A stretch of 64,000 nucleotides of DNA from Planctomycetota bacterium. GTDB taxonomy: Bacteria; Planctomycetota; B15-G4; SIAN01. A model generated the notes under the pieces. It did not search any database and was not told where the DNA came from. It saw nothing but the letters and a program-made list of their open reading frames with translations. The first letter of the stretch is position 1. Every line of letters starts with the position of its first letter. Shown piece by piece: positions 22,353-54,931 of the stretch. The position numbers and the translations under genes are program-made. Where the stretch lies: contig JANNXA010000034.1 of the NCBI GenBank assembly GCA_031409275.1, forward strand, positions 150,120-214,119, given 5' to 3'.

Positions 22353-22745
22353 TCAGCTCTTCGGCTTGACCGTGATGGAGATCGGCTGCGTGATGGCGAT
22401 TCCGCCAGCCCCGCTCGCCGTGACCCGCGCGACCGACTTCTCGACGAGCGCCGCGGAATCGGTGGCTCGCAGCGTGTAGGTGCCGCGGTCGCCAACGATC
22501 TTGGTGCCGGAGTCGACCACTTCGACCCCTTGCGGGAGGTCGGCGAAGTTGATCGAGACCTCGCCGGTCAACAGGTGGCGCTCGATGTGAAGCTCAGTGG
22601 TGGCCGTTCCGCCGCGCACGAGGCTGACACCCGCCGGGGCCTGCAGCGTGAGCTGAGCGCCGGAGGCGCCAGTCACGGTGGAGGACTTCTGGCAGCCTGC
22701 CGAAGCGAGCACGAGGAGGAAGAATGCGATCGGACGTTTCGACAT
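22353..22745 (-). CDS. Small Ig-like lipoprotein
   Basis: Lipobox SAGC; LPQGV motif; paralog of the adjacent gene. Confidence 0.75.
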   Translation of the reverse strand: MSKRPIAFFLLVLASAGCQKSSTVTGASGAQLTLQAPAGVSLVRGGTATTELHIERHLLTGEVSINFADLPQGVEVVDSGTKIVGDRGTYTLRATDSAALVEKSVARVTASGAGGIAITQPISITVKPKS

Positions 22746-22774
22746 GACGGACTCCAGACGAGGGGTGAAAGTGA

Positions 22775-23173
22775 TCATTCGACGACGGTGAGCGCGACCA
22801 CCTGCTCCGTGGCTTGACCGTTCGCCCCCTCGAGGGTGATCCGAATCGAGTGGTTCTGGAGCAGCGATGCCGTGCGCGACGCGCGCAGCACGAAGGTCGT
22901 CGCCGTGGTTTCGACTCGGCGCGACGAGTCCTCCGCGGAAACGCCATCAGGCAGTTGCGACAGCGTGACCGTGACGGCGCCGGTGAAGCGCTCGCGATCG
23001 ATGCCGACGGCGAGTAGCGCCGAGGCGCCCCGCTTCAGGTTGACGGAGAGCGGCGTGGTCACGGTGATCGACGTGCCGTCGTCACCATGCACGGTCGAAC
23101 TCTGGCAACCCATCGACATCAGCGACACGACGCAGCAGGAAGCGATGGCAATGAAGGCTCGGCGACAGTTCAT
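22775..23173 (-). CDS. Small Ig-like lipoprotein (paralog)
   Basis: Lipobox-like SMGC; LPDGV; aligns with 22353-22745. Confidence 0.75.
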   Translation of the reverse strand: MNCRRAFIAIASCCVVSLMSMGCQSSTVHGDDGTSITVTTPLSVNLKRGASALLAVGIDRERFTGAVTVTLSQLPDGVSAEDSSRRVETTATTFVLRASRTASLLQNHSIRITLEGANGQATEQVVALTVVE

Positions 23174-23236
23174 CAGAAGTCTCACGGTGGAATCGAGCGG
23201 TGGGGTCACGCAAGGCGCGTGACTGGCCTTGAAGAA

Positions 23237-23252
23237 CGCAAGGGGCGCGCCG
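23237..23252 (-). promoter_or_regulatory. Sigma54 -24/-12 promoter
   Basis: CGGCGCGCCCCTTGCG, about 64 nt upstream of 23173. Confidence 0.55.
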
Positions 23253-23381
23253 CGGCGCTTGGGTGCAGGCGGCCGGCGGTGCCCGCGAGCTCGCGCCCGC
23301 GACGCTTCTCGATTGCACCATCCGCTTGCAAATCGCGCCTCCGCCGTCCGGTCTCGTCGCCGCTCGGCCGGCCGCAACGAG

Positions 23382-23397
23382 TGGCACGCTTCGTGAA
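23382..23397 (+). promoter_or_regulatory. Sigma54 promoter, -12 GA variant
   Basis: TGGCACGCTTCGTGAA, about 39 nt upstream of 23436. Confidence 0.5.
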
Positions 23398-23435
23398 GAA
23401 GTGTTGCCAGACCCCAACTGCGCGGAGCTCCGAAC

Positions 23436-23585
23436 ATGCTTGAAACGATCGCTCTCGTCCTCGTCGCCTTGTGGCTGCTCGGACTCGTGTCGTCCTACAC
23501 CCTTGGCGGCTTCATCCACGTGTTGCTCGTCGTCGCCGTGGTGCTGATCTTGCTGCGCGTGATTCGCGGACGCCGGGTCGTCTGA
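23436..23585 (+). CDS. lmo0937 (DUF5670) family small membrane protein, 49 aa (absent from the ORF track)
   Basis: MLETIALVLVALWLLGLVSSYTLGGFIHVLLVVAVVLILLRVIRGRRVV; GGAG RBS. Confidence 0.88.
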   Translation: MLETIALVLVALWLLGLVSSYTLGGFIHVLLVVAVVLILLRVIRGRRVV

Positions 23586-23937
23586 CCCGTGCTGACGGGA
23601 CGCGCGTAATGGACCCCTCGCCATGACCGGGGCGTGGCCGTATGCGCCTTCACGAGTCACTCGACAATTCCGGAGCGTTCGCTTCGTGGCGCCCTATCGT
23701 CACGACCTTGTCGTCGCGGTCGAGCGGGGCGAGCGCTCCATGAAACCGCGTCCTCACGGGTGACGAGAGTCCTCACCCGGACGCTTCCCAAGCCACCGAC
23801 GCGATTCCTCCTGGGCGCCGGTGCGAGTCGGGCGACCCGTTGAGAAGTCGGACCCGTTCAGGGCCAACGCGCGGCGTGGCCAGAACCCCCACGCGATCGC
23901 GGGGGCGCGAAACAGGACGGGGCGAGGAGAGGCGTCG

Positions 23938-26880
23938 ATGCGGGCAAAGCCGGCCACCAAGCAACGACCGTCACGCGCAGCGGTGGCGCGACCGGGTCGG
24001 GCCCCGATCCCATGGATCGTCGGGATCGGCGCTTCCACCGGTGGGCTCAAGGCGTTCTCTGAGCTGCTGGCCGCGCTCGAACTCGATAACGGCGCTGCCG
24101 TCGTCCTCGTGCAGCACCTCGCTCCAACTCACAAGAGCCTGCTCACCCGGCTTCTAAGTGCGAAGACGCAGCTGGCGGTGGTGGAGGCCGGTGACGGAAT
24201 GGTGCTGCGCGCCAACCGCGTTGTCGTCATTCCTCCAAGCGCCGAACTGACCGTTGCGAAAGGACGTCTCCATCTCGTCCCGCGCCGGCGGGGTCCAGGA
24301 ACGCCGCGGCCGATCGACGTCTTCTTCCAGTCCTTGGCACAGGGGTGCGAGGGCAGATGCATCGCCATCGTGCTTTCGGGTGCCGGGACCGACGGATCGC
24401 AAGGGCTGCGAGCAGTGCGAGCGGCGGGCGGCATCACGATGGCCCAGGATCCGGCGACGGCGGAATGCTCCGACATGCCGGTCGCCGCGATCGAAACCGG
24501 GGCGGTGGACTTCGTGCTCGCACCGGCCGCCATCGGCGTCAAGATCGGCCAGCTCGAGAAGATGTCGCCCGCGGCGATCCACCATCTCGCGGGTCGCCGC
24601 CGCGACGCGACCGCGCCCGGACTTGATCCGCTTACGGCAATCTTGGAAGCCGTGCGCCGACACTCCGGCGTGGACTTCTCGCATTACAAGCGCCCGACCG
24701 TGCTGCGCCGACTCCAACGCCGCATGCGGGTTCATCAAATCACCACGATCGCAGCCTATTGCAGGCTGCTGGGCGGACGCCCCGAGGAGGTCGGCGAACT
24801 CTTCCGCGACCTGCTGATCCATGTCACCAGCTTCTTCCGCGATCGCCCGGTCTTCGATGCGCTGTCCAGCGAGTTGCTGCCACGCCTTCTGGCGCAGCGT
24901 GCGGACGACGTCCCGCTGCGCATCTGGGCACCAGGCTGCGCGACTGGTGAAGAGGCCTACTCGCTCGCCATGTGCCTGATCGAGTCGATGGAGACCGCGA
25001 AAAAGACGGTGCCGGTTCGCGTGTTTGCCACTGACGTGAGCGAGTCTGCCATCGAGACGGCGCGTGCAGGTCTCTACCCACCGTCGATTGCCGCCGACGT
25101 CTCACCGGAGCGGCTCAACCGTTTCTTCACCCGCGTCGACGGCCACTACCGAGTGACGAAGGCGGTGCGCGACCTCTGCATCTTCGCGCGACATGACGTC
25201 AGCCGCGATCCGCCCTTTTCGCGACTGGACTTGATTCTCTGCCGCAACCTCCTGATCTACCTCGATGCACCGCTACAACGTCGTCTGCTCACCGCCTTTC
25301 ACTACTCGCTGAAACCGGGAGGCGTCCTGGTGCTCGGCGCTGCCGAGTCGATCGGAGCGCAGACCGGGGAGTTCGGCCTCGTCGATGCGTTGCACCGCAT
25401 CTTCGTTCGCAAGCCGTCCGACGCGGTGGTCGTCGCCTCGATGCGGTGGCCGCCGCCCATTTCGCCGCTCACGCTGCTTACGCCGCTCAATCCGCTCACG
25501 CCGGCGGACGCATGCGAAGTCCCCGGGCTGAGTGAACGCGCAGACGCGTTGATCCTTGCGCGCTTCGCACCCGCGGGAGCGATCGTCGATGCCGATGGAC
25601 GGATCGTCAACTTCCGCGGCGCAACCGGGAACTACCTTGAAGCGCCGTCCGGCGAAGTCACGCTGGATCTGCTGAAGATGGTGCGCAGCGGGCTGCTGCG
25701 CGGGACTCGGGACGCGCTGCTCGAGGCGCGCCGCACCGGGCTAGCCGCCGAGCGTTCGGCGCTGCTTGTCGAGAAGAGGTGTCGGGTCAAGGTGGTGGTG
25801 CTGCCGATGGCACCGCCCGGGCCCAACTGCCACCGTCTCGTTCTGTTCGAAGACGGCGCGATCGATTCCAAGGCGTCTGGGCGGCGGAAGCTGGCCGCAT
25901 CGGAGCTGCGCCGCGTTGTCGGATCGACCGAGCTCATTTCGCAGCTGCGAAACGAGCTTGCGGCGAGCCGCGACTATCTGCAGACGATCCAGAACGACTT
26001 CGAGGCGGCACACGAGGAGCTGCAGTCGGCGAACGAGGAGATCCTCTCCAACAACGAAGAGCTGCAGAGCGCCAACGAGGAGCTCGACACCGCGAAGGAG
26101 CAGACGCAGTCCTCGAACGAGGAGCTGCGTTCCGCCAACAATGAGCTGCGCGCTCGTGTCGATGAACTCACGCGCTCCGGTCGCGACCTGATCGACCTGG
26201 TCGCGTGCGGTTCGACGGCGGCGTTCGTGGTGGATGCCGAACTGCGCGTGATTTGCTTCACGCCGAGCGCAAAGGAGCTGCTCGACCTGGTGCCGGCCAA
26301 CGTCGGCCAGGCTCTCGTCGCGGTCGTCGCGTCGCTTGCACTGCCGGAACTCGAGTCCCGGTTGCTCGCGGTCATCGACGGCGGCGCCCCGTTCGTTGGC
26401 AGTGTGCGTGACGCGAAGGGGCGCCCCTTCACGCTGCACCTCCAGCCGCGCCTCGACCCGAATGGGGAGATCACAGGAGCCATCATGATCCTGGCGGGAA
26501 CGTCTCTCGCGATCCACGACGGCTCCCGACTTCCAGCGCCGCAGACGCTGGTCGACCGGTTGTTTGCCATGTCGCGCGAGCCGCTCGCCCTGCTCGATGG
26601 CGATCTCCGCCTTCTGCGATTCAACGCGGCGTTCGTCGCGGCGCTGAAGTTGCCACCGCTCGATGTCGCGTCGCCGCTCGCGGCGCGTCTCGCCGATGGC
26701 ACGGCACGAAAGCAACTCGGCGAACTGCTCCAAGCGGATGCGCCGAGCGGGACCGCTGACATCACGTTGGACGCTGCGTCGGGCGAAGAGAGCGTCCTAT
26801 TGCGCGCCACGCGCTTCAGAGCCGACGACGCCTCCCCGAACCTGCTCCTCGAACTCGCGAGAGCCGGTGGCGCTTCGTGA
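23938..26880 (+). CDS. CheB methylesterase / CheR methyltransferase / coiled-coil / PAS fusion
   Basis: GIGASTGG, VQH, SGAGTDG; VTSFFRD, GCATGEEAYS, CRNLLIY; ELQSANEE repeats. Confidence 0.92.
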   Translation: MRAKPATKQRPSRAAVARPGRAPIPWIVGIGASTGGLKAFSELLAALELDNGAAVVLVQHLAPTHKSLLTRLLSAKTQLAVVEAGDGMVLRANRVVVIPPSAELTVAKGRLHLVPRRRGPGTPRPIDVFFQSLAQGCEGRCIAIVLSGAGTDGSQGLRAVRAAGGITMAQDPATAECSDMPVAAIETGAVDFVLAPAAIGVKIGQLEKMSPAAIHHLAGRRRDATAPGLDPLTAILEAVRRHSGVDFSHYKRPTVLRRLQRRMRVHQITTIAAYCRLLGGRPEEVGELFRDLLIHVTSFFRDRPVFDALSSELLPRLLAQRADDVPLRIWAPGCATGEEAYSLAMCLIESMETAKKTVPVRVFATDVSESAIETARAGLYPPSIAADVSPERLNRFFTRVDGHYRVTKAVRDLCIFARHDVSRDPPFSRLDLILCRNLLIYLDAPLQRRLLTAFHYSLKPGGVLVLGAAESIGAQTGEFGLVDALHRIFVRKPSDAVVVASMRWPPPISPLTLLTPLNPLTPADACEVPGLSERADALILARFAPAGAIVDADGRIVNFRGATGNYLEAPSGEVTLDLLKMVRSGLLRGTRDALLEARRTGLAAERSALLVEKRCRVKVVVLPMAPPGPNCHRLVLFEDGAIDSKASGRRKLAASELRRVVGSTELISQLRNELAASRDYLQTIQNDFEAAHEELQSANEEILSNNEELQSANEELDTAKEQTQSSNEELRSANNELRARVDELTRSGRDLIDLVACGSTAAFVVDAELRVICFTPSAKELLDLVPANVGQALVAVVASLALPELESRLLAVIDGGAPFVGSVRDAKGRPFTLHLQPRLDPNGEITGAIMILAGTSLAIHDGSRLPAPQTLVDRLFAMSREPLALLDGDLRLLRFNAAFVAALKLPPLDVASPLAARLADGTARKQLGELLQADAPSGTADITLDAASGEESVLLRATRFRADDASPNLLLELARAGGAS

Positions 26881-28529
26881 AAAAATCAACCGGCCGCACA
26901 AAGACGCGTCCCGCCATCGCAAGGCTGGATCAGGTGAAGAACGACTGCGAGCTCGACGATCTGCAAGTGCACCACGAGGAGCTTCAGACGCAGAACGAGC
27001 AGCTCGTCGAGGCGCAGCAAGCGCTCGAACTGAGCCGTTTGCGCTACCACGAATTGTTCGACCTGGCGCCAGTCGGCTATTCGACGCTCTCCAGCGTGGG
27101 CACGATCGAAGAGGTGAATCTCGCGCTCGTCCGACTGCTCGGCCGCGAGCGGCATCAGCTGGTGCGACGGTCGCTCCGGACCTTCGTTGCACCAGACCAT
27201 CGCCGGCGTTTCCTGGCGCACCTCGCGGACTGCGGTTCCGACGAACGCATGCACTGCGTCGACCTCGATCTGCTGGCCGGCGACGGCGAGAACGTCCCGG
27301 TTCGCCTCATCACGCAAGCGATTCAGCCCGGCTCGTTGTGGACGGTGATCACCGACCAGCGCGAGCAGGTGTCGATGCGGGCGGAACGAACTCTCGCTGA
27401 GAAGCGCGAGGCGGTCGCGGCGGCGACGATCGACTCCAAGGACCGTTTCCTCGCCATCCTCAGCCATGAACTGCGCACGCCGCTGACGCCGATCCTCGCG
27501 GCGGTCACGAGCCTCATGGACCTCGCCGAGCTGCCGACCTCGTTGCGCCCGCTCCTCGATGTGGTGTGTCGCAACGTGCGCGTCGAGGCGAGGCTGATCG
27601 ACGACCTTCTCGACCTGACGAGTTTCGAGCACCAGAAACTCAGTCTCGAAGTCGAGTCGGTGAACGTCCACGACGTCGCTCGAGACGTCGCGGCCGCACC
27701 CGGTGAGCCGGGTTCCGGCGAGCATTCAGTGCAACTTGAGTTGAACGCGACGATGGCTTACGTCGCGGCCGACCGAATGCGCCTGCGGCAGGTGCTGTCG
27801 AATCTGCTCAGCAACGCACGGCGCTATTCGCCGAAGGGCGGCAACGTCGTGATCAGGACGAGCGATGTCTCGACCGGCTTCCTCGAGTTCTCGGTCGAGG
27901 ACAATGGCATCGGCATCGATCGCTCGCTCCTCGTCCACATGTTCGAGCCGTTCGTGCAGCTGACGAAGCGCCGGCCAGGATTGCGCGGTCTTGGCCTCGG
28001 GCTCGCGATCTGCCGCGGAATCGTCGTGACACATGGCGGCCAGATCGAGGCGCACAGCGACGGCCTCGGCAAGGGAACACGCATCGTCGTGCGATGGCCG
28101 ACGGCTTCACGAGTCGCGGCGACGCCGCCACCCGTCGAGTCGCCAAAGGAAACTGCGCGGCCGCTGCGCATCCTCCTGGTCGAGGACGACGAGGATTGCG
28201 GGATCTCGCTCGCATTCCTCCTGCGACAAGCCGGCCATTCGGTCGAAGTGGCATCTTCATGCGCACAAGCGCGTGTGGTGTGTGTTCCGCCGCCGGACCT
28301 CATCATCAGCGACCTCGACTTGCCCGACGGAAACGGCTACGACCTGCTCGTCGAGCTGCGACAAGGGCGACCGTTGCCTGCGCTCGCACTTTCCGGATTC
28401 GGCGCTGCCGAGGATCGACGCAGGAGCCTGGCGGCCGGGTTCGAGGAGCATCTCATCAAGCCGATCGAGCGCAGCGCTCTGCTCGCCGCCGTAGCCAGTT
28501 CCGTGCAACGCAGTGGCGTGCTGGTCTGA
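26877..28529 (+). CDS. Hybrid PAS sensor histidine kinase with receiver domain
   Basis: SHELRTPL, NLLSNA, DNGIGI, GLGLGL; LLVEDD..SDLDLPD..KP; GTGA overlap. Confidence 0.93.
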   Translation: MKKSTGRTKTRPAIARLDQVKNDCELDDLQVHHEELQTQNEQLVEAQQALELSRLRYHELFDLAPVGYSTLSSVGTIEEVNLALVRLLGRERHQLVRRSLRTFVAPDHRRRFLAHLADCGSDERMHCVDLDLLAGDGENVPVRLITQAIQPGSLWTVITDQREQVSMRAERTLAEKREAVAAATIDSKDRFLAILSHELRTPLTPILAAVTSLMDLAELPTSLRPLLDVVCRNVRVEARLIDDLLDLTSFEHQKLSLEVESVNVHDVARDVAAAPGEPGSGEHSVQLELNATMAYVAADRMRLRQVLSNLLSNARRYSPKGGNVVIRTSDVSTGFLEFSVEDNGIGIDRSLLVHMFEPFVQLTKRRPGLRGLGLGLAICRGIVVTHGGQIEAHSDGLGKGTRIVVRWPTASRVAATPPPVESPKETARPLRILLVEDDEDCGISLAFLLRQAGHSVEVASSCAQARVVCVPPPDLIISDLDLPDGNGYDLLVELRQGRPLPALALSGFGAAEDRRRSLAAGFEEHLIKPIERSALLAAVASSVQRSGVLV

Positions 28530-28545
28530 CGGTCGCCGTACTCGT

Positions 28546-29043: not shown

Positions 29044-29910
29044 TCAGCGCGGCAAGGTGGCCAGTGGGTCCGACCCTTCGGAACCGACCCACCACGGCTG
29101 CCGTCCGTAGTAGCGGTGCACGTCCGTGCCCCAGGTGCGATCGGCGAAGTTCGGCCAGTGGTGCTTGTCGAAACCGGGCGCTTCCGCGAGGCGCTGCTTG
29201 GCGACGTCGAGGATCAGCGTCTGACGTCCATCCACTGCGGTCGATGTCAGCGAGGACCACGGCAGTGCGAACAGCTTGTCGCCCATGCCAAGGAAACCAC
29301 CGAACGAAAGAACCGCGTAGACGATGCGATCGGAGCCATCCTCGATCGCGAGGTCGGTCAACGTGCCGACCACGGCACCCGACGGATCGGCGACATCGGC
29401 GCCAATGACGTTGGAAGCGCGCTCGAGGCCGCGGGCGTGCATGATCTCGGGGTCGAGTTCGACCGAGCCGACCGGTCCGACGGTCCGGTTCAGGGTGCTC
29501 GGCGAAGTGGCGCGGTAATGGGAGTTCACCGACTCGGTGTACTTGCGGTCGAACTGAGGCCAGGAGCCCGGCGCGAAGCTAGGCGCCCCTTCGAGCTCGA
29601 CACGCGAAAGGTCGGAGACGACGAATTCCGAGTCCGACGTGCGCTTCAGGCGGGAGAGCGGTACGGCGAAGTGCTTCTCGCCGATGCCGAGGAATCCGCC
29701 GAAGGAGAGCACGGCCGATGCGAGGTAGCCGGCGCGCTCATCGACGATGAGTTCCTCGATGGCGCCGATCTTGTCGCCCTTCGCGTCGCGAACGTCGCAT
29801 TTCAACAGCTGCGTGGCGCGGCGAACGCGATGCAATGTCGTGCGCGGGGTGGCGGTGGACCCGAGAGGGGTGGAGCCGGCGAGCGGCGCCGACGGGTAGG
29901 GTGGGTTCAT
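29044..29910 (-). CDS. PRC-barrel protein (two barrels), cytoplasmic
   Basis: Two YAVLSFGGFLG.G.K.FA.P-type motifs; APGFD...WP. Confidence 0.88.
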   Translation of the reverse strand: MNPPYPSAPLAGSTPLGSTATPRTTLHRVRRATQLLKCDVRDAKGDKIGAIEELIVDERAGYLASAVLSFGGFLGIGEKHFAVPLSRLKRTSDSEFVVSDLSRVELEGAPSFAPGSWPQFDRKYTESVNSHYRATSPSTLNRTVGPVGSVELDPEIMHARGLERASNVIGADVADPSGAVVGTLTDLAIEDGSDRIVYAVLSFGGFLGMGDKLFALPWSSLTSTAVDGRQTLILDVAKQRLAEAPGFDKHHWPNFADRTWGTDVHRYYGRQPWWVGSEGSDPLATLPR

Positions 29911-30014: not shown

Positions 30015-30956
30015 TCAGCGGCCTGCGCTCGGCGGGTTGGTCTTCGCCTTGGGATCAATCCAATAGGGGTCCTGACCGTAGTAGCTGTGGATCTCGATCC
30101 CCCAGCGAGGATCCGCCATGTCCGGCCAGTGCTTCTGATCGAAGCCTGGGGCTGCCTTCAAGCGGTCCTTCGAGACGTCGAGGACCAACCGATCCTCGTT
30201 CTTCATCGACTGCTTCATCGCCTTCCATGGGATGGCGAAGTACTTGTCGCCCATGCCGAGGAAGCCGCCGAATGAAAGGACGGTGTAGACGATCCGGCCG
30301 GTGCCGTCGTCGATGACCAGCTCCTGCACGTCGCCAAGCGACTTGCCGTCGGTGTCTTCGACCGAGCTGCCGATCACCTTCGAAGCGCGACGCATGCCGC
30401 GCGCTCGAAGATGGTCCTTGTCGAGGGCGTCCTTGGTGATGCGAGTGGCATCCTGGTGCGGGACTCCGCTCGCAGCCAGCCAATACGGCGTCGCCTTGTA
30501 GTAGGTGTGGACCGTCTCGCCGTACGTGCGATCGAACGTCGGCCAGTTGTCGGAAGCGAATGCGGGCGCCTTCTCGAGCGTCGCCTTGGTGATGTCGGCG
30601 ACCACACAATGTTCGTCGTCGGTGCGCACGACGTTGGCGAACGGGATCGCGAACAGCTTCTCATCGAAGCCGAGGAAACCGCCGAAGGACAACACCGCGT
30701 AGGCGATATACCCCTCGTCCTCGTCGATGATGAGGGCCTCGACTTCACCGATCTTGCCACCCTTGGCGTCCATGACGTCGCAGTCAAGGAGTTTCGTGAC
30801 GCGGCACACGCGGCCGCGCACGACTTCCTTCGCAGGGGCCGGGATGGAAGGCTTGTCCTGGCTCTTCGCGGGAGCCACGCCGTCCTGAGCGAACGCGGAG
30901 TTCGCGAACGTCAGGAGTGTCACCGCAATCGATGCGGCATTTCGATGCAAGGTCAT
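30015..30956 (-). CDS. PRC-barrel protein (two barrels), secreted paralog
   Basis: Signal peptide ending AFA-Q; same motifs; GGAG RBS. Confidence 0.9.
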   Translation of the reverse strand: MTLHRNAASIAVTLLTFANSAFAQDGVAPAKSQDKPSIPAPAKEVVRGRVCRVTKLLDCDVMDAKGGKIGEVEALIIDEDEGYIAYAVLSFGGFLGFDEKLFAIPFANVVRTDDEHCVVADITKATLEKAPAFASDNWPTFDRTYGETVHTYYKATPYWLAASGVPHQDATRITKDALDKDHLRARGMRRASKVIGSSVEDTDGKSLGDVQELVIDDGTGRIVYTVLSFGGFLGMGDKYFAIPWKAMKQSMKNEDRLVLDVSKDRLKAAPGFDQKHWPDMADPRWGIEIHSYYGQDPYWIDPKAKTNPPSAGR

Positions 30957-31017: not shown

Positions 31018-31033
31018 CGCAACCGTCATGCCG
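31018..31033 (-). promoter_or_regulatory. Sigma54 promoter
   Basis: CGGCATGACGGTTGCG, about 62 nt upstream of 30956. Confidence 0.7.
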
Positions 31034-31215
31034 CCGTCCGGCGCTGTCGCTCCCTGCGGGCGCGCGCGATCGCCGCTGGCGATCGCGTCGATTGCTACAA
31101 CCGTTGCAAACGCCCGTTCCCCCGGTCGTCGAGCGCCGCACGTTGAATCGAAACGTGGTGCCGCGAGCGGTGATGCGCCCGAGACTGGCGCGACCCGCTC
31201 GATCCGGCGCGGTGG

Positions 31216-32147: not shown

Positions 32148-32163
32148 GGCAAGACGCATGCCG
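32148..32163 (-). promoter_or_regulatory. Sigma54 promoter
   Basis: CGGCATGCGTCTTGCC, about 69 nt upstream of 32079. Confidence 0.65.
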
Positions 32164-32166
32164 CCG

Positions 32167-34322: not shown

Positions 34323-34468
34323 GGGAAGAAACTCCTGCGAGCGACCGGGAATCGGCGTGCGAGCGCGTGCCGAACGCAGGCGGAGAGTAATTGCACCAAC
34401 CCTCGCGCAGTTGAACAATCGCTCGTGAGAAGTCGGAGCAATCGTCGTGCAGGCCGGTCGGATCCAAG

Positions 34469-34484
34469 TGGTACGTGCCTTGCC
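34469..34484 (+). promoter_or_regulatory. Sigma54 promoter
   Basis: TGGTACGTGCCTTGCC, about 32 nt upstream of 34516. Confidence 0.65.
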
Positions 34485-41432: not shown

Positions 41433-41448
41433 CGGCATGCAGATTGCC
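41433..41448 (+). promoter_or_regulatory. Sigma54 promoter
   Basis: CGGCATGCAGATTGCC, about 88 nt upstream of 41536. Confidence 0.7.
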
Positions 41449-41838: not shown

Positions 41839-41860
41839 TCCAGGGCCGAACGAGCCAGCG

Positions 41861-43057: not shown

Positions 43058-43186
43058 GTTTGGCACTCCTTTGGAGAACTCGTCGTGTCGATCGGCGCCG
43101 CCGATCCCCCTCGATTCGAGAACCAACGCATATCGCGCTCCGTGCGCGGTCGGCGTCGTCGCACCGCGTTGCCCGGTCCTTGCCGG

Positions 43187-46100: not shown

Positions 46101-49100
46101 TGCCCCTGCTCGTTGGCAGCGACCACTTCCGATTCGGCGCGCAGCGAAGGATCGGCCCAGAAGATTCGCGAGGCGAGGTCCATGCACAGCTGTGCTTCGT
46201 CCGGATTCATGCCGAGGTGGGCGAGCTCCACTCGCGCGTTGGTGTAGGCCAGCGAGAAGGCTCGCGCCGCGGCGGTCGGATCGTGGTACTGCTCCGCCAG
46301 CGCCAGCGCCCGCGTTCGGTCGCTCGCCATTCCGGTCGCGAATGCCATTCGAATCGATCCGCCCGGCGCGAGCCGGATGCGCAGCCGCAGGCTCGCGATG
46401 GGATCGAGCACCGCGCCGGTGGTGCCCGAGAGCGAGCGCCCGTCGAGCGCGATCGGGTCGTCGAGTTGGTGCCCGCGGCCGATGAAGCGAGCACGATCGG
46501 TCTCGCACTCGACCGCGCCTTGCAGGTGCCCTTCGACGCTCAACACGTGAATCGCGAAGGCGCCCGGTTCGTCAGCGGCGCGCGGTCGACGCGAGCAGAG
46601 GATCGCAGCGCATGCCGGCAGGTAACTGGTCTCGAGGAACAGCTTGCCGAACGCGGGGTGGGCGAGGTCGTCGACGAGCGAGGCGAGCGAGAACTCGACG
46701 TAGCTGGTCACGTCGATCTCGCGCGCGCGGTGGCTCTTGTTGGTGACGGTGAGGCGGCGCACCTCGACGTCGCTCTCGGGCGACACCGTCACCTCGAGCT
46801 GCGTGTCGATTTCGTCATCGCTTCGTCGGAACAGGGCGCGTTCGGGCAGGAAGGTCGCGCTGTAGCTCTCGGGCTCGCGCACTCCGGGTTGGTGGGTCGC
46901 CGACCAGACGATGCCGCTGCGGACGTCGCGCAGGTAGATCAGCTGGCTGCCGCCGTCACGCGTCTGATCCTCGCGCCATCGCGTGACGGTTCGGCCGCGG
47001 CAGATCGATGCGCCGCCGCCCGATTGCGTGACGATCGCGGTGTAGCCGCCGTTCGACAGGAAGTGCGCCTGCGGATGGAGCGTGTCGGCGGTGGTGTAGC
47101 GGCGCGGCGCGCTGGCCGATGCTGGTGTCCGCGCGCTCATCTCCTGCGGGCGCGGCCGGGTGATCGGCGCGTTCCGTGGCACGCGCTCCTGCAGCAGCGC
47201 TTCGGTGCTCTGGATGTACGGATCGGCATGGAAGCGCGCGACCATGTCGGGGCCGAGCAGCGCGGCACCGAGGGCGACGAGCGTCATCCCCTGGTGGTGC
47301 GCCATGAAGGTCCGCACGATCACTCCGTCGCCGATCGCAACGCACGGAGTCCCGATCGACGGCGCGTTGCTGAAGTCGATCGCTTCGTAGCTGCCGTAAC
47401 GGCCGTCAAGGCCAAGTCGCGACAGCGCGCGCAGGTTGTCGCTCGCCTTGCGCGGATCGACGATCGTCGCGAGCGCGGTCGCATAGGGCGCGAGGACGAG
47501 GTTGTCGGCCAGGCCGCGTTTCAGGCCGAGCCCCGGCACGCCGAACGCCTTGTACTGGTAGTGCCCGTGGCGATCGACGAAGGCATAGGCCGACTCGGAG
47601 ATGCCCCACGGCACGCCGCGTTCCTCGCCGTAGTCGATCTGGCGCCGCAACGCGGCTCGACAGCTCGCCTCGATCAGCGTGTCGGGATAGGAGCGCAGCA
47701 ACAGCTGCGGCATCAGGTACTCGAACATCGACGCGCTCCAGGACACGAGCGCCGGTTCGCGATGGACTGCGACGAGGGAGCGGCCGAGTCGGAACCAGTG
47801 TTCCTGAGGAACGTCGCCCTTGGCGATGGCGATGAAGCTCGCGAGCCGGGCTTCGGACGCGAGCAGGTCGTAGCAGCTCACGTCGAGGCGCCCCTCCGAG
47901 TCGGCGTCGGCCAGCAGCCAGCCGATCGAGAAGAGCTTGCGCCGCGGTTCGTAGAGGAAGCGGAAGTTCATCTCCGCGACCAGGAGGCGCGCACGCTCCG
48001 CGAGCGCCTCGATCGGCGCGACGAGGTCGGCCGGCACGTGCAGCTCGAAGGTGGCGGAGAGCGCGTCGGCGAGGGCATTCGACCAGTGGATGAGGTCGCC
48101 GTCGGCACGATCGGGCGATTCACGCTCGGCGATCCGGGCAGCTTCGCTCCGCAGCATTCCGGCGTGCGCCCGCATCGCGTCCGGCAGCGCTTCGGTGGCA
48201 GGCGTGTTGGCGAGCCACTTGACGAACTCGTCGGCGAGACGCTGCAGCGTGGCGCGGGACGCAGCTCGTGCCGCGTCGGGTTCCGGCGCGATCGAAGCCC
48301 GATTCGCGACCGCTTCCTGCAGCAGCTCGGCGGTCGCCAGCGCCGCCGCGTGCCGGACGGCGGGGACCAGCGGCTCGTGAACCAGGCGCGGCAGTCCCGC
48401 CGCCAGGGTGATCAGCGCACCCGCGAGGTTGCCGCTGTCGACGGTCGATACGTAGCGGCGCGGCAGCGGTGCGAGGCTGACGGTGTCGTACCAGTTGAGC
48501 AGATGTCCTTCATGGCGCTCGAGCGACTCGACGGCGGTCAGCATCGAGTCGAGGCGCGCGGCCATGGTGCGCGCATCGATGAAGCCGAGGTCGCGTGCTG
48601 CGAGCGTCGCGAGCAGGCCGACACCGATGTTGGTCGGAGAGGTCCGATGCGCCAGCGCCTCGACGGGCGCCTCCTGGAAATTGTCCGGCGGCAACCAATG
48701 GTCGTCCGGGCCGACGAAGGTCTCGAAGAAGCGCCACGTCCGCCGCGCCATGCGCCCGAGCAGCGCGCGGTCGCTGGCGGGGAGCGTCGTCGTGACGGGG
48801 CGCGCCGTTGCGCTGAGCCAGGCGGAGATCAGTGGCGCGAACAGCCAGCAAGCGACGAACGGGGCGGCGATCGGCAACGCGGACGGCCGCTGCCAGGCGA
48901 TCGCGCCGAGCAACAGGCACGCGAACAGCGGGCTCGCCGCCATCTCTCGCAGGAATAGCGTCCGCGTCCCCTTGGCGCGCGAGCCGGGGGCGCTGGCGCC
49001 GGCCGCGGCGGCGCTCTGCCATTCGAGCAGGTTGCGACGGGTGATCGCGAGGCGGAACAGCGTGACCGCGATCGCGTACAGCGTTGACCACGTCGTGTAG

Positions 49101-51739
49101 GCCAGCAGCACGAGGGTCACGCCGACCTGCTGGGCCGCGAGCGCCGCGTCCTCGCGCACTCCTTCGAGGAAGACTCGCAGCGGTTGCTGCGGCGGCGGGC
49201 CGCCGAGCAGCCGCAGCAGCTCGCGCAGCAGCGGTTGGCCGAGGACGGCGAGCACGCCGAGCGTCCAGGGCAGCGGTGCGCCTGGCAGGACCGTCCAGCT
49301 CATCGCCAGCAACGCGAGGCAGGCCGGTGCGACGAGGCTGCGGCGCAGGTTGTCGGCGATCTTCCAGCGGCTGATCCATGGCAGACGGTCGCGCACGCGA
49401 CCATTGCGGGGCGCCACGCTGCCGAACAGCCATGGCAGCAGTTGCCAATCGCCGCGTGTCCACCGTTGCGCGCGGCGCGCGTGAAGCAGCACGCTCGACG
49501 GGTAGTCGTCGACCAGCTCGACGTCGGAGACGAGCGCGACGCGAGCGAACAGCCCCTCGAAGAGGTCGTGCGAGAGCAGCGTGTCGTCCGCGACGCGCCC
49601 CTCGAGTGCCGCGCGGAACGCGTCGACGTCGTACAGACCCTTGCCGGTGAAGATCCCCTCGCCGAAGAGGTCCTGGTAGGTGTCGGAGACCGCGGTCGTG
49701 TAGGGGTCGACGCCGACGTTGCCAGCGTGGATCCGCGAGAAGCGCGAGCCGGTCGCGCTCGAGAGCGTGACGCTCACCCGCGGTTGCAGCACGCCGTACC
49801 CCTCGATCACGCGGCCGCGCGCCGGATCGAAGCGCGGTCGGTTCAGCGGATGGAGCGCGATCGAGACCAGCTCGCGCGCGGCATCGCGTGGCAGGTTGGT
49901 GTCGGAGTCGAGGGTGATGCAGTAGCGGACGCTCGGCAGCAACCCGAGCGCTCCGACCTGGCAGACGAACGAGGTGTCCGTCGCGCCGCGGAGCAGCCGA
50001 TGGAATTCCTCGAGCTTCCCGCGCTTGCGCTCCCAGCCCATCCATGCGCCCTGCGCCGCGCTGAAGCGCCGCGCGCGGTGGAAAAGGAAGAAGCGATCCT
50101 CCTTGCCGACGGCGTGGCGGCGGTTGAGCCGTTCGATTCCGGCGACCGCCGCGGCGAGCAGCGCGGCGTCCTCGGGCCGTTGCTCGGTCGTGGCGTCCGT
50201 GAAGTCGCTGAGCAGCGCGAAGTGGACGTGCGGTTCGGCGTTCCCGAGCGCCTGCACCTCGAGGTGTTCGAGCAGATGCTCCACTCCTTCGAGGCTCGCG
50301 AGCAGGGTCGGTACCACCACCATCGTCCGCGCGGAAGCGGGTACGCCTTCCTTCAGTTCCAGGCGGGCGAGGCGACGCGGTGGGGCGAAGGCGACCGCCG
50401 CGACGTGCAGGAGATCCGCGGCAAGCTGGCTTGCCGGCACCACCACGAGCAGCCCGATGAGCAGTCGCCAACCGCTGTCGTCGATCGTGGCCACCGCCGC
50501 TGCCGTGACGAGCGCCGTCAATGTCATCAGCGCGCCGAGGTAGAGCAGCGTCACGTGGCAGAAGCAGGCGCGTCGCAGCAGACGCAGCCACGGCGGCCGG
50601 AACGCGACCGCGGTCTCGAGCGCGCGCCGGCCGCGGCCGAGCAGATGCCAGCCGACGTGGCTCGCGCGCGCGTCGACACCCGGCTCCCCGCTCGCAGCGC
50701 GCGCGCTCTCGACCGCCCGCAGCGCCACCTTCAGCTGCTCCTCGGCGGTCGGACCGGCAAGCTCCTCGATGGCATGGCGGCAGCGGTCGCGTGTGGCGAA
50801 CTCGGCCTGGCCGTGGATGCCCGCGGGATCGCGCAGCAGCACCTGCTCGACCACGCTCTCGCGTTCGACGAACTCGGTCCAGTCGAGGTTCGAGCAGAAG
50901 CGCAGGCTGGTGACCGCGTTCTCCATCGAGACACGCCTCGCGGCGACTCCCTGGATGTCGGCGCGAATGGCGTCCTCCGCCTCGATCTGCGACGCGGCAA
51001 GGCGCGCCTCGAGCACGGCGCGGATCGGCGCGCAGCGCGGGCCGTGCTCGCGCAGGCGCAGCAGAAGTTGGGCGGTGTACGCCATGGTCGGCGGCTCCGG
51101 CAGCGCCGGCAGCTCGACGTTCGGCTCGCCGCGAGCGACGCCGTTCCAGACCGCGTCGGCCTCGAGCCGGCAAGTGCGTCGCGCGAGGATCTCCTCGGCG
51201 AGGCCCCTCACGTTCTCGATCAGCCGCACCTTCAGCATGGTCGGCCACGCCCACAGCTCGCCGATGGTGAGCGGTGCGAGCGGCTGGAACGCCGCGAGCA
51301 GATGGTGCATTCGCTCGGTGCTGAGGCGGCTGTCGCTGACCCGGATCAGTTCGACGGCGAGCGCCTCGATGCGCGACGTGCAGGCCGATTCGAGCGCGGT
51401 CAGCTTCGGGAGCTGACGGAAGTAGTCACGGGGCAGGTTGCGACGCGTCTCGACGATGTCGGCGTCGATGGTGTGGAAGGCGTCGAGCAGCCATTCGGTC
51501 GCAGGCTCGATTGGCTGGTCGCTGCGGGCGTCGTCGGCGAGGACGAGGAACGCCTTGCGCAGGAAGCGTTCGTTGTCGGCGAGGCGGCCGAAGAACCGAC
51601 GCGAACCGCGACGCGACCGGCGCGCGAGCCCGAAGCGCGCGGCGAGGACGCGGGCGTGCTCTTCGAGGCCGTCGATGCCGAGCAGTACGCCAGCGAGCGA
51701 AGCCCCCTCGCCGCCATTCTGGCCGCTCCGTAGCTGCAT
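43187..51739 (-). CDS. ndvB: Cyclic beta-1,2-glucan synthase (Cgs/NdvB/ChvB; GT84 + GH94)
   Basis: About 2850 aa; [60 protein letters not shown]. Confidence 0.95.
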
Positions 51740-51797: not shown

Positions 51798-51813
51798 AGC
51801 AATCGACGTTCCT
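51798..51813 (-). promoter_or_regulatory. Sigma54 promoter of ndvB
   Basis: AGGAACGTCGATTGCT, about 59 nt upstream of 51739. Confidence 0.65.
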
Positions 51814-51951
51814 CGTTCGCCGGGCGGGCCTCCCGTCGTGGGCGAACGGTGCGGCATCACGTCGGTCGGCGTTTTGTAGATCGCGCTGCACGATCGACGG
51901 GTTGGGCCGCCGCGAAGCGGTGGTCGCTCGATGCGGGCTCGCCGCCCGCGG

Positions 51952-53481
51952 CTACTTCACGCCGGACATGCTCGAGTGGGTGTTTCCGAGCAGGTAGCTG
52001 TAGACGATGCTGGTGGTCTGGACCGTCTGGTGCACGTTCGCAGCGACGGCGTTGGGCACGTCGCGACGCGAGAGGTCGTACTGCAGGCCGATCGCATGGC
52101 GTTCGTGGATGCGAAACGTCAGTGCGGCCTGTTCGCGCAGGATGTTTTCGGTGTGGCCGCTGTCACTCGATCCGGCGCCGCTGATGTAGTAATCACGCGC
52201 CGAAAGGTCGAGCATCGCGACGTCCCAGAAGATCAGCCGGATCGCGGCGATCGCTTGCGGCGAGATCCCGTAGTGGTACTCGTCCTCGAGGTCCGAATCA
52301 GACTTTCGGCCAGCGGCGCCGTAGCCGACGCCCCCGAGGAGGTTGCCCTGCAGCGCGATGTGGTTGGTGCACCACCATTGCATCGTCGTGCCGAACGAGA
52401 CGGCCGTCGCCGACAACTGGAACAGCTGCGGCGAGAGGTAGCAGTAGGTGCCGTAGACACCGGCGAGGCCGTGCAGCGTGCCGGAACCGTATTCGGTTCC
52501 CACCAGCAGCCCGCGAATGAAGGCGTTCTCCACGAACGCGTCGGTGCTCGAAGTCAGGGAGCCTTCGAGGTGGAAGTAGTCGAACGGATCTTCCCACTGA
52601 TCGCTGCGCTTGCCTGGCAACCCGTAGTCGATCTCGAAGTTCCCGACGACATGGTTGCGGTCGACGTCACTGGCGCGCCCTTGACGCGAGACTTTGGTGC
52701 TCAGGCTGCCCCCAAGGCCGACGCGCGCGAAGATCGCCGGCTCGTCGTGGTCGTACGGCGCGCGGAAGCGGTCGCCGAAAGCGTGCCGGTTAACCCAGGT
52801 CGGCGGCGAAATGACGCCGGCGGCCGCCTCGCGCCATCCGTCGGGCTCGATCTCCCCGGCGAGGATCCAATCGGCCGTGCGGTAGAAGGCCTCGCCGATG
52901 AAGGTCCCGCCGAAAGAGGTCACGATCTGATCGTTCAGCGACGGTGGCACCGTCTCGCCGGCGATCTCCCAGAGCGCGCTGCCGAGGAACGTGTAGCCCG
53001 ACGCTTCCCAGAAGCTCAGTCCGGCGGAGCGCGCGAACCCGAAGTAGAGCGACCCCGCGAACGGGTGCCACAGCTGGTTGACGTCGAACGGATCATGATC
53101 GACGACCCAGCTCGAGCGCAGATTCTCGGAGATCGAGGACGAATCGCTGCCGTACTCCTCTTCATCGATGAAATGGCGATTCCACTGATTCAGGAGCAGT
53201 TCGAAGCTGACGATCTCGAAGGCCGGAATCAGGTAACTGCGGTTGTCTTCGAGGTCGAGCGGAAAGGCGAAGCTGTATTTCATCGCCGCCGGGTCGCCGT
53301 GGAACATCGTCGGCGATGCGTCCACCGGGTCGCCAGTTGGAGTGAGCGGGCGTGGTGCGCTCGAAGCGGTGGTCGCCAGCGGTCGGGAGAGGGGCGCTGG
53401 GTCCGGGCTGCGATGAGGCTTCGTTGCGCAGCTCGAGCTGAGCGCCGCGAGCGACATCAACGCGATTCGATTCGGATTCAT
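51952..53481 (-). CDS. DUF3943 domain outer-membrane-type protein
   Basis: DHDPFDVNQLWHPFAGSLYFGFARSAG, WEIAGET..PSLND; beta-stranded C-terminus. Confidence 0.82.
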   Translation of the reverse strand: MNPNRIALMSLAALSSSCATKPHRSPDPAPLSRPLATTASSAPRPLTPTGDPVDASPTMFHGDPAAMKYSFAFPLDLEDNRSYLIPAFEIVSFELLLNQWNRHFIDEEEYGSDSSSISENLRSSWVVDHDPFDVNQLWHPFAGSLYFGFARSAGLSFWEASGYTFLGSALWEIAGETVPPSLNDQIVTSFGGTFIGEAFYRTADWILAGEIEPDGWREAAAGVISPPTWVNRHAFGDRFRAPYDHDEPAIFARVGLGGSLSTKVSRQGRASDVDRNHVVGNFEIDYGLPGKRSDQWEDPFDYFHLEGSLTSSTDAFVENAFIRGLLVGTEYGSGTLHGLAGVYGTYCYLSPQLFQLSATAVSFGTTMQWWCTNHIALQGNLLGGVGYGAAGRKSDSDLEDEYHYGISPQAIAAIRLIFWDVAMLDLSARDYYISGAGSSDSGHTENILREQAALTFRIHERHAIGLQYDLSRRDVPNAVAANVHQTVQTTSIVYSYLLGNTHSSMSGVK

Positions 53482-53562: not shown

Positions 53563-53578
53563 AGCACGTCGTATGCCG
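53563..53578 (-). promoter_or_regulatory. Sigma54 promoter
   Basis: CGGCATACGACGTGCT, about 82 nt upstream of 53481. Confidence 0.6.
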
Positions 53579-53682
53579 ATCGCAGGATCGAAGCGCGGGT
53601 GGAACGCGGTGCGACGTCAGAAGTCCGGTTTCGTCGACCAGGGACGACTCGATTTCGCGGCTTGATCGGCGCTGGGCAACTC

Positions 53683-53698
53683 CGGCTTCGAAGTTGCG
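53683..53698 (+). promoter_or_regulatory. Sigma54 promoter
   Basis: CGGCTTCGAAGTTGCG, about 42 nt upstream of 53740. Confidence 0.55.
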
Positions 53699-53739
53699 TC
53701 GCGTCGGCAAATGGCCAAGACGACGCCCGTGACCCTTCG

Positions 53740-54543
53740 ATGAAGAGCCTCTCCGCGGTTGCGTTCAGTGGCGCGAGCCTCGGCCTGTCGATGCTCGCCT
53801 GTTGCACCGCCACTTCGCACGAAGGTTGGTGGGAGCGCCATACCGACGTCGACACCTGGGCCCATGCTGCGGGGCAGCAGGTCAACGACCCGCTGCGGCT
53901 CATCCCGCAGGCGTCGCTGCTGTTCGCTGCTCCGGTGCTGGTCGTCTACGATCGCGTGCTCGAGCGTCGCTCTGTCGCCCATCCGCGCCTGACGGACGGA
54001 AATACCTATGGCGGAAACGTCGCCACCGTCGCGCTCGGCGCCACGGCGCTTGGTGTAGCCGCGGGTCATTGGATGGGGGGCGACTCCGGCAGCTCGTTCG
54101 AGGTGCTCGCCGAGTCGCTCACCGCGACGATGGCCACGACTGGCCTGCTGAAGCTCACCATCCCGCGCTCGCGACCTGGAAGCGGACGCGGCTCGTCGTT
54201 TCCGTCGGGGCACACGGCGTTCGCATTCAGTACCGCGACCTGGCTCGCTCGCTCGACGTGGGATTCGACCGACACATGGTGGCGCGGAGTCGGGTTCCTG
54301 AGCTTCCTGCCGGCCGCCTACGTCGGCATGAGCCGGATCGAGGGCAATCAGCACTACCCCTCGGACGTCGCCGTAGGCGCTTTCGTTGGCGCGGCCCTCA
54401 CCAACTGGATCTATGACGCGCACGTTGGCGATCCGGCGACCGGCCGCGACGGTCTGCTTCCTGAGTCGAATCGGTTGAGCGGGAGCTTTGCCCCCGTCAT
54501 CGAGGAAGACGCGGTCGGAGTGGCGTGGTCGATCCGCTTCTAG
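53740..54543 (+). CDS. PAP2 family phosphatase
   Basis: KLTIPRSRP, FPSGHT, SRIEGNQHYPSD. Confidence 0.9.
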   Translation: MKSLSAVAFSGASLGLSMLACCTATSHEGWWERHTDVDTWAHAAGQQVNDPLRLIPQASLLFAAPVLVVYDRVLERRSVAHPRLTDGNTYGGNVATVALGATALGVAAGHWMGGDSGSSFEVLAESLTATMATTGLLKLTIPRSRPGSGRGSSFPSGHTAFAFSTATWLARSTWDSTDTWWRGVGFLSFLPAAYVGMSRIEGNQHYPSDVAVGAFVGAALTNWIYDAHVGDPATGRDGLLPESNRLSGSFAPVIEEDAVGVAWSIRF

Positions 54544-54600
54544 CCCGCCTGACCCACGATTCCCTGCTGCCGCTCGATTGGTCGAAGCCTTCGCGTTCGC

Positions 54601-54632
54601 AACAAACTCCCCGTCGCTTGGCGACGGGGAGT
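54601..54632 (-). terminator. Intrinsic terminator hairpin between convergent PAP2 and csbD
   Basis: Perfect 12-bp stem ACTCCCCGTCGC/GCGACGGGGAGT, 3-nt loop, T-rich tail on the minus strand. Confidence 0.7.
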
Positions 54633-54651
54633 GCGAGTCACGCGGGCACGA

Positions 54652-54852
54652 TCACTTGTCGTCAGCCAACTTGCGCTGAGCCTTGCCGACGAGCTTCTGC
54701 GCCCGGCCTTCGATCTCCTTGGCTTCGCCCTTGCGCTGCTCGGACTCGCTGCCGATCAGCTTGCCGACGACGTTGCGCACCTTGCCGGCGCCCTGCTTCG
54801 CCCCGCCCTTGATCTCGTTTGCGATGCCGCGTTTGTTCAGATCCGAGCTCAT
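54652..54852 (-). CDS. csbD: CsbD family general stress protein
   Basis: IKGGAKQGAGKV...GEAKEIEGRAQKLVGKA; 66 aa; GGGGAG RBS. Confidence 0.85.
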   Translation of the reverse strand: MSSDLNKRGIANEIKGGAKQGAGKVRNVVGKLIGSESEQRKGEAKEIEGRAQKLVGKAQRKLADDK

Positions 54853-54915
54853 GGAGACTCCCCTTGCGGATCGGCGTGAGGCCGATCTTGACCAACGTGT
54901 GAAACGTTGGAGGAG

Positions 54916-54931
54916 AGCAAGCAACGTGCCG
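54916..54931 (-). promoter_or_regulatory. Sigma54 promoter of csbD
   Basis: CGGCACGTTGCTTGCT, about 64 nt upstream of 54852. Confidence 0.75.

Follow-up and report, generated by a model that had tools for sequence, protein, structure and literature searches.

Conserved sigma-54 promoter motifs cluster beside a GSFTGA activator gene in a Planctomycetota genome and suggest a general-stress-type regulon

A 64,000 nt stretch of contig JANNXA010000034.1 from a Planctomycetota bacterium (assembly GCA_031409275.1), hereafter the window, contains a gene island of ∼35 kb around positions 22353–54931 in which about a dozen conserved -24/-12 motifs precede genes for small envelope and stress-type proteins. 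The island is the densest cluster of sigma-54 (RpoN) boxes in the genome, although not their sole use. We consider the boxes of the island very probably to be sigma-54 promoters. A local activator of the REC-AAA-Fis type together with a second, upstream motif is the probable switch, and a general-stress role is likely, judging from the gene families present and from boxed csbD, yciF and Mn-catalase genes in relatives. Our preferred reading, held with moderate confidence, is that the island represents the regulon of this activator, running a general-stress-type programme through sigma-54.

The initial annotation described 15 boxes in the orientation of the downstream gene, about 30–95 nt ahead of its start. 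All 15 are present in the sequence, each one base past the coordinate then quoted (by which the boxes are named below), and all lie in the sense orientation 32–92 nt before a plausible start. Their sequences are also as described: twelve read GG-N8-TTGC, while 53563, 43127 and 23382 carry GTGC, ATGC and GTGA, respectively. The GG and GC are exactly 10 nt apart, one site being a conserved GA variant. Genes in the island and in the background (5.59-Mb assembly, 69% GC, 92.9% complete) were called with the same dicodon caller, trained on this genome (∼4065 genes), with the starts at 23173, 34516, 41088 and 53481 assigned by hand. Measured in this way, motif density is far higher than in the rest of the genome: GG-N8-TTGC lies upstream of 11 of 21 island genes versus 190 of 2553 elsewhere (Fisher 9e-8), and GG[CT]A-N6-TTGC upstream of 7 of 21 versus 39 of 2553. 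Spacers of 6, 7, 9 and 10 show no enrichment in the island (p 0.08–0.69). The window contains seven matches to the strict pattern against 1.87 expected, all seven of them inside the island, and none of 100 shuffles gives as many.

A scan against the genome background leads to the same picture. It used an RpoN matrix built from non-proteobacterial loci in other genomes and a cut of at least 10 bits, and it matches at 10 of 21 island genes compared with 113 of 2553 others; one of the ten is the activator gene, whose upstream site has no GG and so is no canonical box. (A first expectation-maximisation matrix built on relatives was set aside because it gave no sharp motif, gamma 0.88.) Because the island borders had been chosen on the motif itself, labels were also permuted: among runs of 21 consecutive genes, 0 of 10,000 permutations reach ten, and the best run outside the island contains five. 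Ten of the 15 sites score at least 10 bits; the weaker ones are 51798, 53683, 41018, 37014 and 43127 (Table 1), and we regard 41018, 43127 and 53683 as doubtful. The genome has an rpoN gene (E 7e-58) encoding a protein of 479 aa with core-binding and DNA-binding domains and an RpoN-box-like motif. Sigma-54 is indeed used genome-wide, as 1403 tandem intergenic regions hold 71 sense versus 22 antisense matches.

Phylogenetic footprinting shows that boxes stay with orthologous genes despite reshuffled gene order, in relatives of the same genus (G002, G004), the same family (G005, G007) and more of the order; in G004 the island orthologues are scattered over at least three separate places. Ten of the 15 boxes are supported at orthologues (23382, 31018, 32148, 34469, 37014, 40922, 41433, 53563, 54916, and 51798 in two of seven orthologues), while 41018 and 53683 are not conserved in G004, and 23237, 36768 and 43127 lay outside the comparison, a direct orthologous promoter lacking. 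A blind search for two four-letter words separated by a gap ranks GGCA-N6-TTGC first in three independent sets of loci near the activator: relatives (27 versus 0.72 expected), non-proteobacterial loci (25 versus 1.17) and proteobacterial loci (91 versus 6.66).

Since selection on the activator was to be avoided, genes were also pulled by family alone, ignoring the activator, and their promoters scored by means of a matrix derived from proteobacterial loci. A box of at least 10 bits precedes 12 of 13 csbD genes in the order (two of them this genome's) and 11 of 25 elsewhere in the phylum. In Planctomycetota, 6 of 13 strong yciF matches and both Mn-catalase matches over the cut-off are boxed, counts made without the weak rows (8 of yciF, 2 of catalase), and the tyrS/trpS control promoters carry a box in 0 of the 30 loci returned. 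The second csbD of this genome (contig C35, L102 4129–4647) is divergent from a DUF3309 gene, each being boxed, and the pair is adjoined by a group II intron reverse transcriptase (L102:1653–2792).

Relatives and other phyla alike show a strong excess of a TTGTAGAAA-like word upstream of boxed promoters, and cross-trained scans place it almost only 50–140 bp upstream of the GG. In the island, 6 of the 15 boxes (five distinct sites) have this motif 55–69 bp further upstream, versus 8 of 185 other boxed promoters (p 1.3e-4), and its copies at 23310, 31085 and 34403 are conserved blocks in G004. Its positions peak ∼10.5–11 bp apart, with Rayleigh p-values at 10.5 bp of 1e-2 to 1e-6 over four settings of model and centring (the sites are not independent), and with no phasing at 9 or 13 bp. 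A helically phased upstream motif is as would be expected of a putative activator site, and we think it quite probable that this is the predicted site used by the local activator. The motif also adjoins the activator's own gene, which suggests autoregulation. A related palindrome turned up in the blind word search, and an independent core, TGTA[GC]AA, occurs twice versus 0.83 expected; the pattern TG[TAC]A[GC]AA[AT]C (6 versus 0.47 expected) was drawn up with the island sites in view, and we give it no weight. A motif-like match within the coding sequence of the activator's helix-turn-helix (HTH; 32962) was taken as coincidence.

At the divergent promoters 36769 and 37015 a motif copy is found 80–85 bp downstream instead, that of the AI-2E gene being conserved in G004. 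These two copies (36690–36708 and 37093–37111) are symmetric, and each also lies ∼315–320 bp upstream of the opposite promoter. Outside the island, two genes of this genome with no Pfam family (C55:4327 and C17:37893) have a box and also a strong copy of the upstream motif (16.8 and 14.2 bits). An identical 18-nt stretch upstream of unrelated genes (C9:100324, C9:118290, C16:236831), and another recurring stretch (C12:30084, C45:22079), are probably small repeats or insertion sequence ends.

The AAA+ activator claimed at 32931–34322 has the REC-AAA-Fis layout, with the receiver Asp/Thr/Lys residues, Walker A and B motifs, GSFTGA loop and Fis HTH all intact. It falls below all 25 NCBIfam cut-offs listed, its nearest named relatives are from Planctomycetota, and it is the only GSFTGA protein among the 19 full-length activators of the genome. 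A tree of 94 AAA domains places it in a 72-row clade (SH-aLRT, a branch support measure, 99) from Planctomycetota, Myxococcota, Acidobacteriota, Eisenbacteria, Binatota and Pseudomonadota (Burkholderiales), which leaves out E. coli NtrC, AtoC, ZraR and GlrR as well as the genome's 18 other activators; the tree is quick and midpoint-rooted, 30 redundant loci were dropped, and the clustering is partly expected because the rows are hits chosen by similarity. Among 126 locus proteins the GSFTGA loop is found in 116 and the same, near-invariant recognition helix in 102.

The neighbourhoods of these activators hold otsA, PfpI, LigD, DUF2383, BON, hemerythrin and SOD genes, 61 of 80 loci having at least one stress-type family within 10 kb and 19 of 80 a second rpoN. 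At clade loci 16 of 19 rpoN and 26 of 28 otsA genes are boxed. At a cut of at least 8 bits, boxes precede 19 of 33 stress-type genes versus 60 of 251 neighbours outside Proteobacteria, and 58 of 111 versus 124 of 590 within them (without L065, a duplicate); at 10 bits or more the comparison is 11 of 33 versus 44 of 251 (p 0.03). Across 35 genomes of the order, csbD was found in 10 of the 13 that have the activator and in 1 of the 22 that do not, at a similarity cut (E<=1e-110) chosen after seeing the matches and among genomes that are kin rather than independent. Four Burkholderiales loci (L016, L021, L062, L064) carry two divergent clade activators, one without a receiver, often with a boxed rpoN. 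Two ECF-like (extracytoplasmic function) sigma genes (L090:5607–6266, L091:8124–8816) have a strong box and upstream motif, so that a sigma-54-to-ECF cascade is possible there.

Table 1 Features of the island and its left flank (positions of the window; sigma-54 boxes scored in bits; ORF, open reading frame)
Feature	Position	Strand	Remarks
Upstream activator-like motif before divergent csbD-like ORF	19525..19548	.	15.5 bits; outside the range first annotated
Decayed -24/-12 box, CG for GG	19591..19604	+	
Divergent CsbD-like ORF	19634..19870	+	no Pfam match; 42-48% to CsbD of relatives
DDE_Tnp_1_4 transposase	20317..21633	+	single copy in assembly
Putative lipoprotein, no family	22353..22778	-	
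Putative lipoprotein, target of box 23238	22775..23173	-	52% orthologue in G002
Sigma-54 box	23238..23251	-	11.2 bits
Upstream motif common to divergent boxes 23238 and 23383	23305..23328	.	conserved in G004
Sigma-54 box, GA variant	23383..23396	+	10.7 bits; G002 and G004 also have GA
lmo0937/DUF5670 membrane protein	23436..23585	+	
CheB-CheR-PAS fusion, candidate sensor	23938..26880	+	no box upstream
PAS-HisKA-HATPase-REC hybrid kinase, candidate sensor	26877..28529	+	
PRC-barrel protein, probably co-transcribed	29044..29910	-	
PRC-barrel protein	30015..30956	-	
Sigma-54 box	31019..31032	-	12.0 bits; conserved in G004, G005, G007
Upstream motif	31085..31103	.	
Secreted-type protein, no family	31216..32079	-	
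Sigma-54 box	32149..32162	-	13.6 bits; conserved in G004
DHp-CA fold protein, candidate phosphotransferase or phosphatase	32167..32889	-	H-box, no recognisable N/G1/G2 ATP motifs
REC-AAA(GSFTGA)-Fis sigma-54 activator	32931..34322	-	
Upstream motif between activator gene and box 34470	34403..34426	.	near-identical in G004
Sigma-54 box	34470..34483	+	11.1 bits; conserved in G004
Small tail-anchored membrane protein, no family	34516..34827	+	start uncertain; 49% to G004
FG-GAP repeat secreted protein	35186..36676	-	
Motif copy downstream of box 36769	36690..36708	.	8.5 bits
Sigma-54 box	36769..36782	-	12.1 bits
Sigma-54 box	37015..37028	+	7.9 bits; stronger box at same place in G004 and G002
Motif copy ∼85 bp downstream of box 37015	37093..37111	.	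15.9 bits; conserved in G004
AI-2E family transporter	37110..38900	+	
DUF3185 protein	40663..40875	-	
Sigma-54 box	40923..40936	-	13.9 bits; conserved in G002, G004, G007, G013
Weak box	41019..41032	+	8.1 bits; not conserved in G004
59-aa proline-rich ORF, unannotated	41088..41267	+	conserved in G004
Upstream motif	41354..41377	.	12.7 bits
Sigma-54 box	41434..41447	+	12.5 bits; boxes before DUF883 genes in relatives
DUF883 (41536-41838) and two membrane-protein genes (41861-42388, 42385-42675)	41536..42675	+	59-61% orthologues in G004
Small membrane protein, no family	42701..43057	-	
Doubtful box	43128..43141	-	6.2 bits
Cyclic beta-glucan synthase, which we take to be NdvB/Cgs-like	43187..51739	-	GT2-like, glucoamylase, GH94 domains
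Sigma-54 box	51799..51812	-	9.3 bits; strong box in 2/7 orthologues
Upstream motif	51871..51889	.	12.2 bits
DUF3943 protein	51952..53481	-	
Sigma-54 box	53564..53577	-	11.8 bits; box and upstream motif in G004 and G005
Weak box	53684..53697	+	8.5 bits; not conserved in G004
PAP2 phosphatase	53740..54543	+	
CsbD-like protein	54652..54852	-	38.5 bits, cut-off 40
Sigma-54 box	54917..54930	-	15.8 bits

The labels first given to the targets stand for CsbD (just below its cut-off), DUF883_C, both PRC barrels, lmo0937/DUF5670, DUF3185, AI-2E and the GH94-containing NdvB-like protein; the yqjE- and yqjK-like genes have no Pfam or NCBIfam match and owe their names to position only. To the left (19525–19870) an intact upstream motif precedes a box whose -24 element reads CG, with a transposase adjacent, so this is probably a decaying member of the regulon, with which the island would extend leftwards. 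A hydrophilic low-complexity ORF (40110–40511) has a box and upstream motif in its G004 orthologue and here the motif alone (40571). A peptidase C39-like lipoprotein and small neighbours (39209–39835) are syntenic in G004, and the G025 homologue is boxed. Proline-rich ORFs like 41088–41267, with boxes, also occur in Burkholderiales loci (L016:11649). Scans for Rfam families and for tRNA genes gave no match. The idea of a horizontally acquired integrative island was rejected, as there is no tRNA, no integrase among the scanned island proteins, and the GC content is 0.677 versus 0.69.

Candidate input proteins lie close to the activator gene. The adjoining gene at 32167 encodes a 240 aa protein with an H-box and a predicted DHp-CA fold (pLDDT, a model confidence score, 87.7) in which N, G1 and G2 motifs are not recognisable; a fold search returns ordinary kinases first and the phosphotransferase ChpT at rank 50, so the fold is shown, not an identity with ChpT. 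A DHp-type gene without recognisable ATP motifs also follows the activator gene in family-level relatives, and similar degenerate proteins are found in Eisenbacteria loci. The CheB-CheR-PAS fusion and hybrid kinase, 4 kb from the activator, are adjacent in G004 too. A phosphorelay through these proteins is a guess that fits the gene anatomy. In our speculative model the signal would be sensed by the CheB-CheR-PAS protein and the hybrid kinase, and phosphate would pass, possibly via the ATP-site-less DHp protein, to the receiver of the activator. The phosphorylated activator would then bind the TTGTAGAAA-like motif 55–135 bp upstream of the -24 GG and loop to sigma-54 polymerase, opening the promoters, and the products (CsbD, the DUF883 operon, lmo0937, DUF3185, PRC barrels and cyclic glucan synthase) may shield the envelope during stationary phase or under osmotic or drying stress.

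The initial annotation had proposed a general stress response run by RpoN rather than by a sigma70-type factor. The sigma-54 wiring is strongly supported by the enrichment, spacing, footprinting, rpoN, upstream motif and activator clade, while replacement of a sigma70-type factor is unproven. CsbD, ElaB, YciF and Mn-catalase are members of RpoS, SigB or EcfG regulons, and the island holds three hallmark families: CsbD, DUF883 and lmo0937. Taken with the boxed csbD, yciF and Mn-catalase genes of the phylum, these families make a general-stress output of the island a somewhat better than even prospect. In this genome the best match to RpoS reaches 272 bits versus a cut-off of 378.7, the best match to SigB/F/G 123 bits versus 234, and NepR has no match at 92.9% completeness, EcfG and PhyR themselves not having been searched for.

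Several observations weigh against a general stress regulon of this activator, in addition to the manner in which the tree and the co-occurrence cut were made. Catalase (PF00199), BON, Mn-catalase and YciF are unmatched in this 92.9% complete genome, and tblastn gives no match for otsA or ligD; because the tblastn screen missed the known small proteins CsbD and DUF883, its blanks count for long proteins only (OtsA, LigD, YihY). The gene set is therefore narrower than a classical general stress regulon, although catalase, BON, otsA and YciF genes do have boxes in relatives. One of two ferritin-family genes has a weak box (8.6 bits) and the other none, and outside the order 14 of 25 csbD and 7 of 13 yciF genes have no direct box. 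Cross-genome p-values are overstated because the genomes are related. An upstream-motif model trained on other phyla gives a weak excess, 4 of 15 island boxes versus 11 of 185 others at 8 bits or more (p 0.017), and 1 of 15 versus 7 of 185 at 9 or more. Boxes are found also before genes for ClpB/C-type ATPases, Hsp20, SpoVG and a flagellar rod protein (20 genes looked at, picked from 73 outside the island scoring at least 11 bits). The ClpB/ClpC-type ATPase and Hsp20 genes (C16:190074, C50:261675, C51:118011) have no strong upstream motif, and a separate sigma-54 heat-shock arm is possible.

Published expression data, from one supplement each of PMC5979394 and PMC12322963 and covering part of each, are mixed. 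Burkholderia thailandensis otsA rises 9.2-fold in stationary phase in a syntenic stretch that lists no activator genes, and the probable rpoN2 (BTH_II2210, our own assignment) is unchanged, both of which also count mildly against the proposed regulon. In nodules of a Paraburkholderia phymatum rpoN mutant, expression is lowered for a PfpI gene (log2 -1.55, p 0.011) and for one described as 'transport-associated' (-1.80, p 0.004), and two rows for csbD and two for otsA show no significant change, the activator locus not being mapped.

With the same sigma-54 wiring and activator, the island could have a more limited envelope or osmotic function, or belong to a resting or surface-bound state, instead of running a multi-stress programme. 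Envelope proteins are half of the island targets, among them the cyclic glucan synthase, AI-2E, PAP2, DUF3943, FG-GAP and lipoproteins; low osmolarity is the typical condition for cyclic glucan synthesis, and the lack of matches to catalase, BON, otsA and ligD fits this reading as well. It is nevertheless unlikely in our view, given the otsA, PfpI, LigD, DUF2383, BON, hemerythrin and SOD genes at clade loci and the boxed Mn-catalase and yciF genes in the phylum.

A general-stress regulon under the local activator must also be set against control by other activators, or binding of the motif by another regulator (e.g. NarL/GacA-like), the local activator then driving only some promoters. The genome has 19 full-length activators, of which C49:12838 has a similar recognition helix; 9 of 15 island boxes are without the upstream motif, a further point against a single local switch; and LuxR-type regulators occur in some related loci. 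The motif and recognition helix are, however, conserved together across phyla, the motif is conserved beside the activator's own gene, and no LuxR-type gene is among the island proteins scanned, so we consider this alternative improbable.

We assign a still smaller probability to sigma-54 being one input only, or a promoter block, with stress induction coming from an ECF or other sigma70-family factor. There are 58 sigma70 region-2 matches over the cut-off in the genome, sigma70/ECF-type genes lie inside related clusters, stress-induced ECF genes are reported in Rhodopirellula (PMC2754498), and the B. thailandensis otsA gene is induced with no activators at its locus. Against this, no word with -35/-10-type spacing came near the top of the blind search in planctomycete or other non-proteobacterial loci, and the phased upstream motif fits activation by looping. 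Finally, although GG-N8-TTGC is common (45 matches in the window) and three sites are weak or unconserved, chance matching in GC-rich intergenic DNA is next to impossible as an overall explanation, and is rejected for ∼12 of 15 sites, in view of the enrichment, blind word search, matrix scan, shuffles, permutations and csbD, yciF and Mn-catalase boxes.

The proposed sigma-54 stress regulon resembles the RpoS (Gammaproteobacteria), SigB (Bacillota) and EcfG/PhyR/NepR (Alphaproteobacteria) regulons in content, with CsbD, DUF883/ElaB-YqjD and lmo0937 in the island and BON, OtsA, PfpI, LigD, YciF and Mn-catalase in related loci; apart from the last two, named above, these families too have members in the RpoS, SigB or EcfG regulons. 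Unlike those systems, it has -24/-12 promoters accompanied by an upstream motif and would be controlled by an ATP-driven activator instead of sigma stability or partner switching; matches to RpoS and SigB stay below their cut-offs, and NepR has none. The activator shares with NtrBC, AtoSC, ZraSR and GlrKR the REC-AAA-Fis layout, 45–52% AAA-domain identity, an upstream putative binding motif and probable autoregulation, yet belongs to a separate clade with a GSFTGA loop and a motif of its own. Its regulon would comprise about a dozen promoters compared with the one or two operons of NtrC-family systems, and the neighbouring DHp protein lacks ATP motifs. In the Bacillus cereus RsbK-RsbM-RsbY system a CheR-type methyltransferase beside a hybrid kinase acts upstream of the stress response, with SigB as output; the island likewise pairs a CheR-type protein with a hybrid kinase, here as a CheB-CheR-PAS fusion that is a candidate link to the activator.

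A close published parallel lies in Ralstonia, where Rsp1667 and Rsp1668 are GSFTGA activators beside rpoN2, with no function given in the accessible part of PMC4676750. The Ralstonia loci L021 and L062 similarly combine rpoN, two clade activators and boxed DUF883 and YihY genes, orthology to strain GMI1000 being by synteny and not by alignment; the present genome differs from the Ralstonia and Burkholderia rpoN2 loci in having one rpoN and one clade activator. Ralstonia rpoN2 is itself boxed, induced in minimal medium and dependent on rpoN1, its role being called 'enigmatic' (PMC4371752), and in B. pseudomallei the expression of katE requires rpoN2 (PMC4745423). The parts of PMC4676750, PMC4371752 and PMC4745423 available do not frame these loci as a general stress regulon. 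In Planctomycetia, sigma-54 control has been predicted for chaperone, MscS and Usp genes, the main text as accessible naming neither csbD nor 'general stress' (PMC12316311), and work on the common stress genes of Rhodopirellula includes a proposed sigma-54 promoter for a thioredoxin (PMC2754498); the accessible parts of PMC3162934, PMC9045368 and PMC5748707 contain nothing on this regulon. A literature search, with most subscription papers outside its reach, found no description of it: the parts are of known kinds, and within that search their wiring was not found in print.

How general stress is coordinated in phyla without RpoS, SigB or EcfG is not established in the literature examined. We tentatively suggest, with slightly less than even confidence, that there is a fourth general-stress architecture, in which one clade of GSFTGA activators, acting at an enhancer of its own, governs genes of the CsbD/ElaB/BON/OtsA/YciF/catalase type in Planctomycetota, Myxococcota, Acidobacteriota, Eisenbacteria, Binatota and Burkholderiales, in the last also feeding the orphan rpoN2, and is itself fed by a phosphorelay with an ATP-site-less phosphotransferase. 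With a candidate master activator, a motif and targets now named, the question becomes testable in cultured relatives, and a possible role is offered for the enigmatic Burkholderiales rpoN2 locus (PMC4371752).

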